NCBI RefSeq assembly: GCF_022846255.1
Contig: NZ_AP025682.1
From: Escherichia coli
GTDB lineage: Bacteria > Pseudomonadota > Gammaproteobacteria > Enterobacterales > Enterobacteriaceae
Reading direction: 5' to 3' (one strand)
DNA length: 64,000 bases
Made by a program: the position numbers and the translations under genes
In this document: piece by piece, positions 2,707-2,886 of the stretch
How positions within the stretch are numbered: position 1 is the first letter of the stretch
Layout: every line of letters starts with the position of its first letter
The notes under the pieces: model-generated
The model's input: only the letters and a program-made list of their open reading frames with translations
The model's database searches: none
What the model was told of the DNA's origin: nothing

Positions 2707-2886
2707 ATGTTGACCACAACAAGCCACGACAGCGTATTGCTGCGTTCCGATGATCCCCTGCTCGACATGAACTACATCACCAGTTTCACCGGCATGACCG
2801 ACAAATAGTTTTATAAACTGATCAGTGAAGGCTATTTTCAAACTGGGCGGTACAAAAGCGAAGTGGAGCAGTGGATGCAGCAGCGA
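2707..2886 (+). pseudogene. AlpA-family (phage-type wHTH) regulator gene interrupted by in-frame TAG at 2806-2808
   Basis: Translation ...ITSFTGMTDK*FYKLISEGYF...SEVEQWMQQR matches the AlpA-like pattern (LTGxSRSTIYRLIxxGxFP...ESEVxxWI); amber codon falls inside the HTH. Confidence 0.4.

Follow-up and report, generated by a model that had tools for sequence, protein, structure and literature searches.

The stretch of Escherichia coli DNA analysed here (64 kb; hereafter the window) opens with an island module that is collinear with FDAARGOS_536 over positions 162–5046, at 98.8% identity, the collinearity stopping at 5046. The module, whose genes and lesions are collected in Table 1, contains a relic of an AlpA-family gene that lies downstream of a YagK/YfjJ-type gene, two zinc-ribbon genes and a second pseudogene, and that is followed by a small cysteine-rich open reading frame, an apparently intact gene and the remains of an insertion sequence. 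PGAP annotates the equivalent of the upstream pseudogene as 'frameshifted; incomplete' and the equivalent of the IS3-family element as a pseudogene as well ('IS3 family transposase; frameshifted'). The gene at 3153–3644, whose window translation has no Pfam match, is called 'hypothetical protein' by PGAP in two near-identical genomes. Intact versions of the alpA-like gene follow a YagK/YfjJ-type gene in Citrobacter, Serratia, Pectobacteriaceae and Cronobacter, and in Citrobacter and Serratia the intact gene also precedes two DUF7828 zinc-ribbon genes; the combination of a YagK/YfjJ-type gene, an AlpA-like gene and two DUF7828 genes is a recurring module of enterobacterial islands. At the far side of the module, a minus-strand ORF (4963–5508) abuts the IS3 element and by eye resembles the HTH plus PfkB kinase-type gene that stands beside the module in locus L004. 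An antisense ORF at 2503–2841 is without a Pfam match and was treated as spurious.

Table 1. Features of the island module and lesions of the AlpA-family relic (window coordinates)
Feature	Position	Strand	Basis or remark
YagK/YfjJ (inovirus Gp2-like) gene	228–827
Two tandem overlapping paralogous genes, each DUF7828 plus C-terminal Zn_ribbon_11	1193–1582, 1579–2004	+
Upstream pseudogene, homologue of a 190-aa D10 hypothetical protein	about 2280–2625	+	two tblastn segments in different frames; residues 1–60 missing
AlpA-family gene relic, start codon to position of ancestral TGA	2707–2915	+	tblastn with intact D10 protein; DNA alignments
Amber codon TAG for ancestral TGG (Trp; W35 in D10 numbering)	2806–2808	+	start of predicted second helix
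Two deletion junctions	2837–2848	+	11 nt lost at 2837/2838, 13 nt lost at 2847/2848
1-nt deletion, 3′ frameshift (approximate site)	2897–2898	+	DNA alignments to intact alleles
Ancestral stop TGA, now out of frame (read GAT GAA)	2913–2915	+	sequence and alignment
Cys-rich ORF, 57 aa, candidate zinc-ribbon mini-protein, intact	2912–3085	+	ATG overlaps ancestral alpA stop (ATGA)
Run-on of the open frame as far as TAA 3391, without homology or conservation as an ORF	2916–3393	+
Homologue of D10 YagK/YfjJ domain-containing protein (PGAP name), apparently intact	3153–3644	+	78% identity over 154 aa, single frame
Degenerate IS3-family element, module boundary (approximate limits)	3817–5046	+	rve and HTH_21 in ORF 4199–5038

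The frame of the relic is opened by the ATG at 2707–2709, and it is the equivalent base at which PGAP starts the corresponding pseudogene in both FDAARGOS_536 and O111:H8 1074-2. Conceptual translation from this codon gives MLTTTSHDSVLLRSDDPLLDMNYITSFTGMTDK*FYKLISEGYFQTGRYKSEVEQWMQQRIEGAWGQQDEM..., where the interruption is the TAG at codon 34, and the next in-frame stop is the TAA at 3391–3393. An earlier note on this DNA had described an in-frame amber codon at 2806–2808, a frame that stays open far past it and the disappearance of the native stop. The codons read exactly as it described, and the missing stop is accounted for by the single-nucleotide deletion near 2897/2898, which puts the ancestral TGA out of frame. 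The note had given the feature a span of 2707–2886, of which the start stands and the end does not, 2886 being an arbitrary point in a relic that reaches 2915; likewise, its list of lesions was right as to the amber codon and the stop but missed a net 24-nt deletion in the most conserved part of the domain.

The relationship of the relic to AlpA is most easily seen through an intact E. coli allele, that of D10 (WP_000958152.1), which encodes a 78-aa protein of sequence MLTSMTGHDSVLLRADDPLIDMNYITSFTGMTDKWFYKLISEGHFPKPIKLGRSSRWYKSEVEQWMQHRIEASRGAAA. This protein matches the Pfam model Phage_AlpA (PF05930) with E = 2e-10 and 40.8 bits, against a cut-off of 21, and when it is used as a tblastn query on the 64-kb window its sole match is the relic (E = 1.9e-29, 72% identity). 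The AlpA relationship had been put forward in the earlier note as a claim that would fall if a homology search gave no AlpA link; that search has now been run, the link it returns is far above chance, and the relic is a homologue of bona fide AlpA members by descent. A protein search of a 5.8-billion-protein database, with the window translation carrying Trp at the TAG as the query, retrieved 147 homologues, most of them with a precomputed PF05930 match. At the DNA level, 5,426 complete E. coli genomes were searched by megablast with window positions 2500–3400 and 2,812 of them gave a match; the annotated feature beneath these matches is a 'helix-turn-helix transcriptional regulator' or an 'AlpA family transcriptional regulator'. 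A second AlpA-like copy, indicated at 31761–31868 by tblastn (E = 0.003), was given no weight because the K-12 AlpA sequence used as the query was approximate.

The check that the earlier note had asked for, an alignment with intact AlpA homologues, maps three independent lesions in the window allele. The first is the amber codon itself: the corresponding codon is TGG in the DNA alignments to the D10, P0001 and P0005 loci, and the tryptophan it encodes is invariant in 35 full-length homologues drawn from Escherichia, Citrobacter, Serratia, Pectobacteriaceae and Cronobacter. The second is a pair of deletions with a net loss of 24 nt, the 10 nt between them being read out of frame, such that the ancestral PKPIKLGRSSRW has become QTGR; the exact placing of the 11- and 13-nt gaps depends on the alignment. 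Positions invariant in the same 35 homologues (F45, P46, P48, K50, G52, R53, S55, R56 and W57) span the deleted stretch, those from P46 to W57 being among the residues lost, and the wing motif F-P-x-P-x-K-x-G-R-x-S-R-W that follows the second helix in the family is replaced by QTGR in the window copy. The third is the 3′ frameshift. With codon 34 turned into TAG, 24 nt lost on balance and the native stop gone, the relic is not the uninterrupted ORF of about 70–80 codons expected of a family member.

It could be asked whether the window copy belongs to an AlpA subfamily with a naturally short wing. This was rejected: a shortened wing occurs in 0 of the 21 top homologues that were aligned, and among the 5.8 billion proteins searched no full-length match to the Trp-restored sequence exceeds 79% identity. 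At E ≤ 1, Pfam has no family that the window translation matches even when Trp is put back, the N-terminal fragment of 33 aa has no Pfam match either, and the window copy does not reach the gathering score of PF05930. It is thus a member of the AlpA family by descent only. Past the deletions the sequence YKSEVEQWMQQRIE remains in frame and shows good conservation, so the decay is recent rather than advanced.

What these lesions would mean for the protein can be judged from the intact D10 protein, which was modelled with AlphaFold2 on the alignment of 35 sequences (mean pLDDT 78.8). The model comprises a short strand, helices at residues 22–29 and 33–42, a loop/strand wing at 43–58 and a C-terminal helix at 59–76. 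In this predicted fold, W35 sits in the second helix (33–42) and the deletion takes out the wing (43–58). The top PDB neighbours of the model are excisionases (8c3t, RdfS 8dgl and TorI 1z4h), followed by winged helices of the MerR type; the GIsul2 excisionase 8c3t resembles it with a target-normalised TM-score of 0.83, an rmsd of 1.6 and 31% identity. Sequence searches with an intact homologue likewise find 8c3t (E = 1.2e-3) and TorI of KplE1 (1z4h; E = 0.018), and NCBIfam gives only a sub-threshold 'excisionase family DNA-binding' match. The likeness to 8c3t, 8dgl and 1z4h concerns the fold of the intact relative only, the wing that these proteins possess being deleted in the window copy.

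AlpA is reported to act as an excisionase in CP4-type prophages, and in Shewanella it is required for excision of the prophage CP4So (PMC5148205); it has also been described as a master regulator or excisionase in E. coli phage-inducible chromosomal islands (PICIs) and other islands, and AlpA master regulators occur in PICIs of Gram-negative bacteria (PMC11773190). The relic is homologous to this family, whose examples include AlpA of the K-12 cryptic prophage CP4-57 and of CP4So, and is 72% identical to a member that passes PF05930, but it differs from the family in its nonsense codon, the loss of its wing, its frameshift and the lack of a match to the PF05930 model. Like the known AlpA systems, it resides in an integrative island with a tyrosine integrase adjoining a tRNA gene, although it lies some 57 kb from that integrase rather than beside it. 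The AlpA literature that was searched gives no function for the subfamily with the sequence pattern MLT..HDSVLLR..TDKWFYKLISEGHFPKPIKLGRSSRW, and by analogy with the rest of the family its intact relatives would be expected to serve as excisionases or regulators.

Is the damage real? Single-base indels of the sort seen near 2897 are a common type of sequencing error, and one might suppose that the gene is in fact intact, its stop codon and indels having been introduced by faulty sequencing or assembly. This supposition deserves almost no credence. Deletions of 11 and 13 nt are atypical of sequencing errors, and a 141-nt probe spanning the lesions matches 148 records with at least 99% identity, so that the same TAG and the same deletions recur, at 99–100% identity, in 148 independently sequenced complete genomes. 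Two of the copies were compared over 901 nt, and both those of FDAARGOS_536 (99.8% identical) and O111:H8 1074-2 (99.4% identical) have the same TAG and the same deletions; PGAP describes both as a pseudogene, 'helix-turn-helix transcriptional regulator; internal stop; incomplete'. The corresponding RefSeq pseudogenes, EGX93_RS10830 in FDAARGOS_536 and KP521_RS04080 in O111:H8 1074-2, are the same allele as that of the window. The O111:H8 1074-2 copy (L003:3208-3408) differs in an extra C>T change that turns a CAG into a second in-frame TAG, at the equivalent of window positions 2905–2907, so the run-on frame is short there; this shows the continuing decay of a dead allele. Most of the other matching genomes hold a version about 24 nt longer, judged from sampled matches in which 132 query bases span 156 bases of the record.

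The distribution of the lesions among alleles also bears on the order in which they arose. Two alleles that are otherwise intact, P0001 (114 aa) and P0005 (117 aa), lack the same single nucleotide at the 3′ end but retain the TGG codon, the wing and the PF05930 match, and because of this the native stop was probably lost first. Only the window's allele has the TAG and the wing deletions, and no allele with the TAG alone or with the wing deletions alone was found. Other broken variants do exist in the databases, namely P0011, in which the wing is frameshifted, and P0031, which is truncated; the AlpA-like gene of this subfamily decays often in E. coli islands.

The earlier note had left two options on the table: a decayed regulator, or a site of suppression or recoding. 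Under the second option the TAG would be decoded, by an amber suppressor tRNA borne by the strain or by programmed read-through, to yield a functional AlpA-like protein, and what speaks for it is that the frame is open past the TAG and that the segment corresponding to the C-terminal helix is kept in frame behind it. The read-through product, however, would be short of 8 residues, invariant wing positions among them, and would end in a non-homologous tail of about 160 residues in a frame that is not conserved; even with Trp restored, as described above, no Pfam domain is recovered. Since 24 nt are gone, amber suppression could not rescue the protein. Recoded stops are expected to be conserved in otherwise intact homologues, yet this TAG is found only in the allele that also carries the deletions, the 35 full-length homologues all having Trp. 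Nor is TAG set aside for a special use here, as it terminates 7 of the 38 long ORFs in the window, a share above the usual one in E. coli. As for a decoding agent, ARAGORN finds a single tRNA in the 64-kb window, tRNA-Phe(GAA), and thus neither a CUA anticodon nor a suppressor tRNA within that stretch. With the pseudogene label that PGAP gives to the same allele added to these points, read-through to a functional protein appears extremely improbable, and the TAG is best regarded as an ordinary stop.

The 176-codon ORF at 2863–3393 has no Pfam match, and its counterpart in D10, L004 and L005 runs into several stops within about 40–60 codons. Relatives thus lack the long open frame, which is allele-specific chance and not evidence of coding, and the ORF was rejected as a real gene on these two grounds. 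In terms of annotation, ORF 2863–3393 should not be called a gene, the locus 2707–2915 should be treated as a pseudogene, and the TAG should not be taken as evidence of recoding.

Taken together, the nonsense codon, the 24-nt loss from the wing, the 3′ frameshift and the PGAP pseudogene call bear out the first option of the earlier note, and we consider 2707–2915 to be a non-functional AlpA-family relic, an ordinary pseudogene, with a probability of roughly 95%; no observation runs counter to decay. Intact members code for a DNA-binding protein with a winged helix, some 78 aa long and of the excisionase, recombination-directionality or island-regulator type. A 1-nt deletion near the 3′ end would first have abolished the native stop; later, and in either order, TGG at the invariant Trp would have become TAG and two deletions would have cut out the DNA-binding wing. 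Translation from 2707 should now end at 2806–2808 and release a 33-residue fragment that lacks a complete DNA-binding domain, and the long frame beyond the TAG is a by-product of the frameshift rather than coding sequence. Loss of the window copy may have been free of cost, or may have helped to fix the island in place, and a broken excisionase-type gene would fit the picture of islands becoming immobilised. That the gene is dead is not new, as RefSeq annotation already marks identical alleles as a pseudogene; what is added is a further case of a mobile-element gene that has decayed within an enterobacterial island rich in IS elements, which in itself matters little.

The item at the locus with some follow-up value is the Cys-rich mini-ORF that begins at the ancestral alpA stop. 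A conserved core, P[VP]RW.C..C.R.YCG..PCP.C[FW], is found in E. coli D10, Citrobacter koseri and Serratia liquefaciens, in each case directly behind an intact alpA-like gene, with equivalents of the mini-ORF at L002:3441-3593, L006:2753-2887 and L007:2749-2883. In Citrobacter and Serratia the mini-ORF is separate from the alpA-like gene, lying 13–17 nt downstream of it behind a GAGGGG motif that resembles a Shine-Dalgarno sequence, and there it has a sub-threshold match to Zn_ribbon_11 (E of about 1.5e-3). The assemblies of Citrobacter and Serratia have no gene called at this place, nor does PGAP mark one in D10. Differences between the genera fall 15 times at the third codon position as against 6–8 times at each of the others. 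The sequences form only 16 sparsely populated clusters of 'hypothetical protein', in which the N-terminal 30 residues or so are conserved and the tails run free, and the four exact mini-ORF sequences derived here are absent from a 15-billion-protein collection. It is conceivable, though on balance doubtful, that 2912–3085 (MKCVVMPVRWHCAKCRRYYCGNQPCPWCW...) is a real and largely unannotated gene, whose product would be a mini-protein resembling a zinc ribbon, about 30 residues of it forming a conserved core. If so, it might be a conserved small partner of the AlpA subfamily in enterobacterial islands that has stayed intact while alpA decayed, and it may represent the Zn_ribbon_11 domain of the neighbouring DUF7828 proteins in free-standing form.

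The mini-ORF also invites the thought that the relic might keep a role unrelated to AlpA, either as a leader or uORF for the Cys-rich frame or through an active 33-residue N-terminal peptide. The position of the mini-ORF start on the ancestral stop (ATGA), its conservation across genera, the bias of its divergence towards third positions and its intactness in the window all lend this some appeal. Against it stand the fact that the mini-ORF has no family assignment beyond the sub-threshold Zn_ribbon_11 match, the freely varying C-terminal tails and the replacement of one Cys by Tyr in the D10 version; moreover, with the TAG coming so early, translation would be uncoupled from the mini-ORF, which is no help to it. 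On the sequence comparisons available such a role seems very unlikely, and the pseudogene reading is retained for the relic as a whole. A structured RNA was also considered and set aside, as Rfam at gathering thresholds gives nothing at 2–4 kb, and a promoter role was set aside because promoter-like sites are no more frequent than chance would give. Sites resembling terminators exceed the mean of shuffled sequence (4 vs 0.9), but none lies between the TAG and the ancestral stop.

The setting of the module is that of an integrative island. A tyrosine integrase of 420 aa (59562–60824), with Arm-DNA-bind_3, Phage_int_M and Phage_integrase domains, adjoins the minus-strand tRNA-Phe gene at 61022–61097 in the speC-yqgA (pheV) context, and several IS elements lie in the interval between it and the relic. 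The GC content swings between 32% and 56% over the window, several IS3-family transposases are present, and the island is mosaic, IS-ridden and decaying. Among complete E. coli genomes, coverage of window positions 1–25000 and of 52000–64000 stays below 80% throughout, and the island is therefore a unique mosaic. The core flank at 52000–64000 (speC, yqgA and tRNA-Phe/pheV) itself shares only about 97% identity with most of these genomes.

Two further parts of the window were noted in passing. The Hfq-binding sRNA isrC is present at full length on the minus strand at 51355–51477 (Rfam RF01387, 135 bits). It is normally found upstream of flu (antigen 43) in CP4-44-type islands; here, what lies downstream of it is an IS3-family transposase ORF (50296–51063, minus strand) and then an aminotransferase gene and a Na+/H+ antiporter-family gene, and since the transposase ORF is its next neighbour the isrC gene looks orphaned. 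The region 11900–20700 is a low-GC (about 40–46%) cluster resembling those for sugar-acid catabolism, with genes for a UxaA-family hydrolase, an MFS transporter, a PdxA-family dehydrogenase, an amidohydrolase and a protein of the dihydrodipicolinate-synthase family, and its identity to the corresponding clusters of complete E. coli genomes is only about 87%. TAG is the stop codon of three ORFs in a row here (16984–18342, 18428–19693 and 19703–20653).
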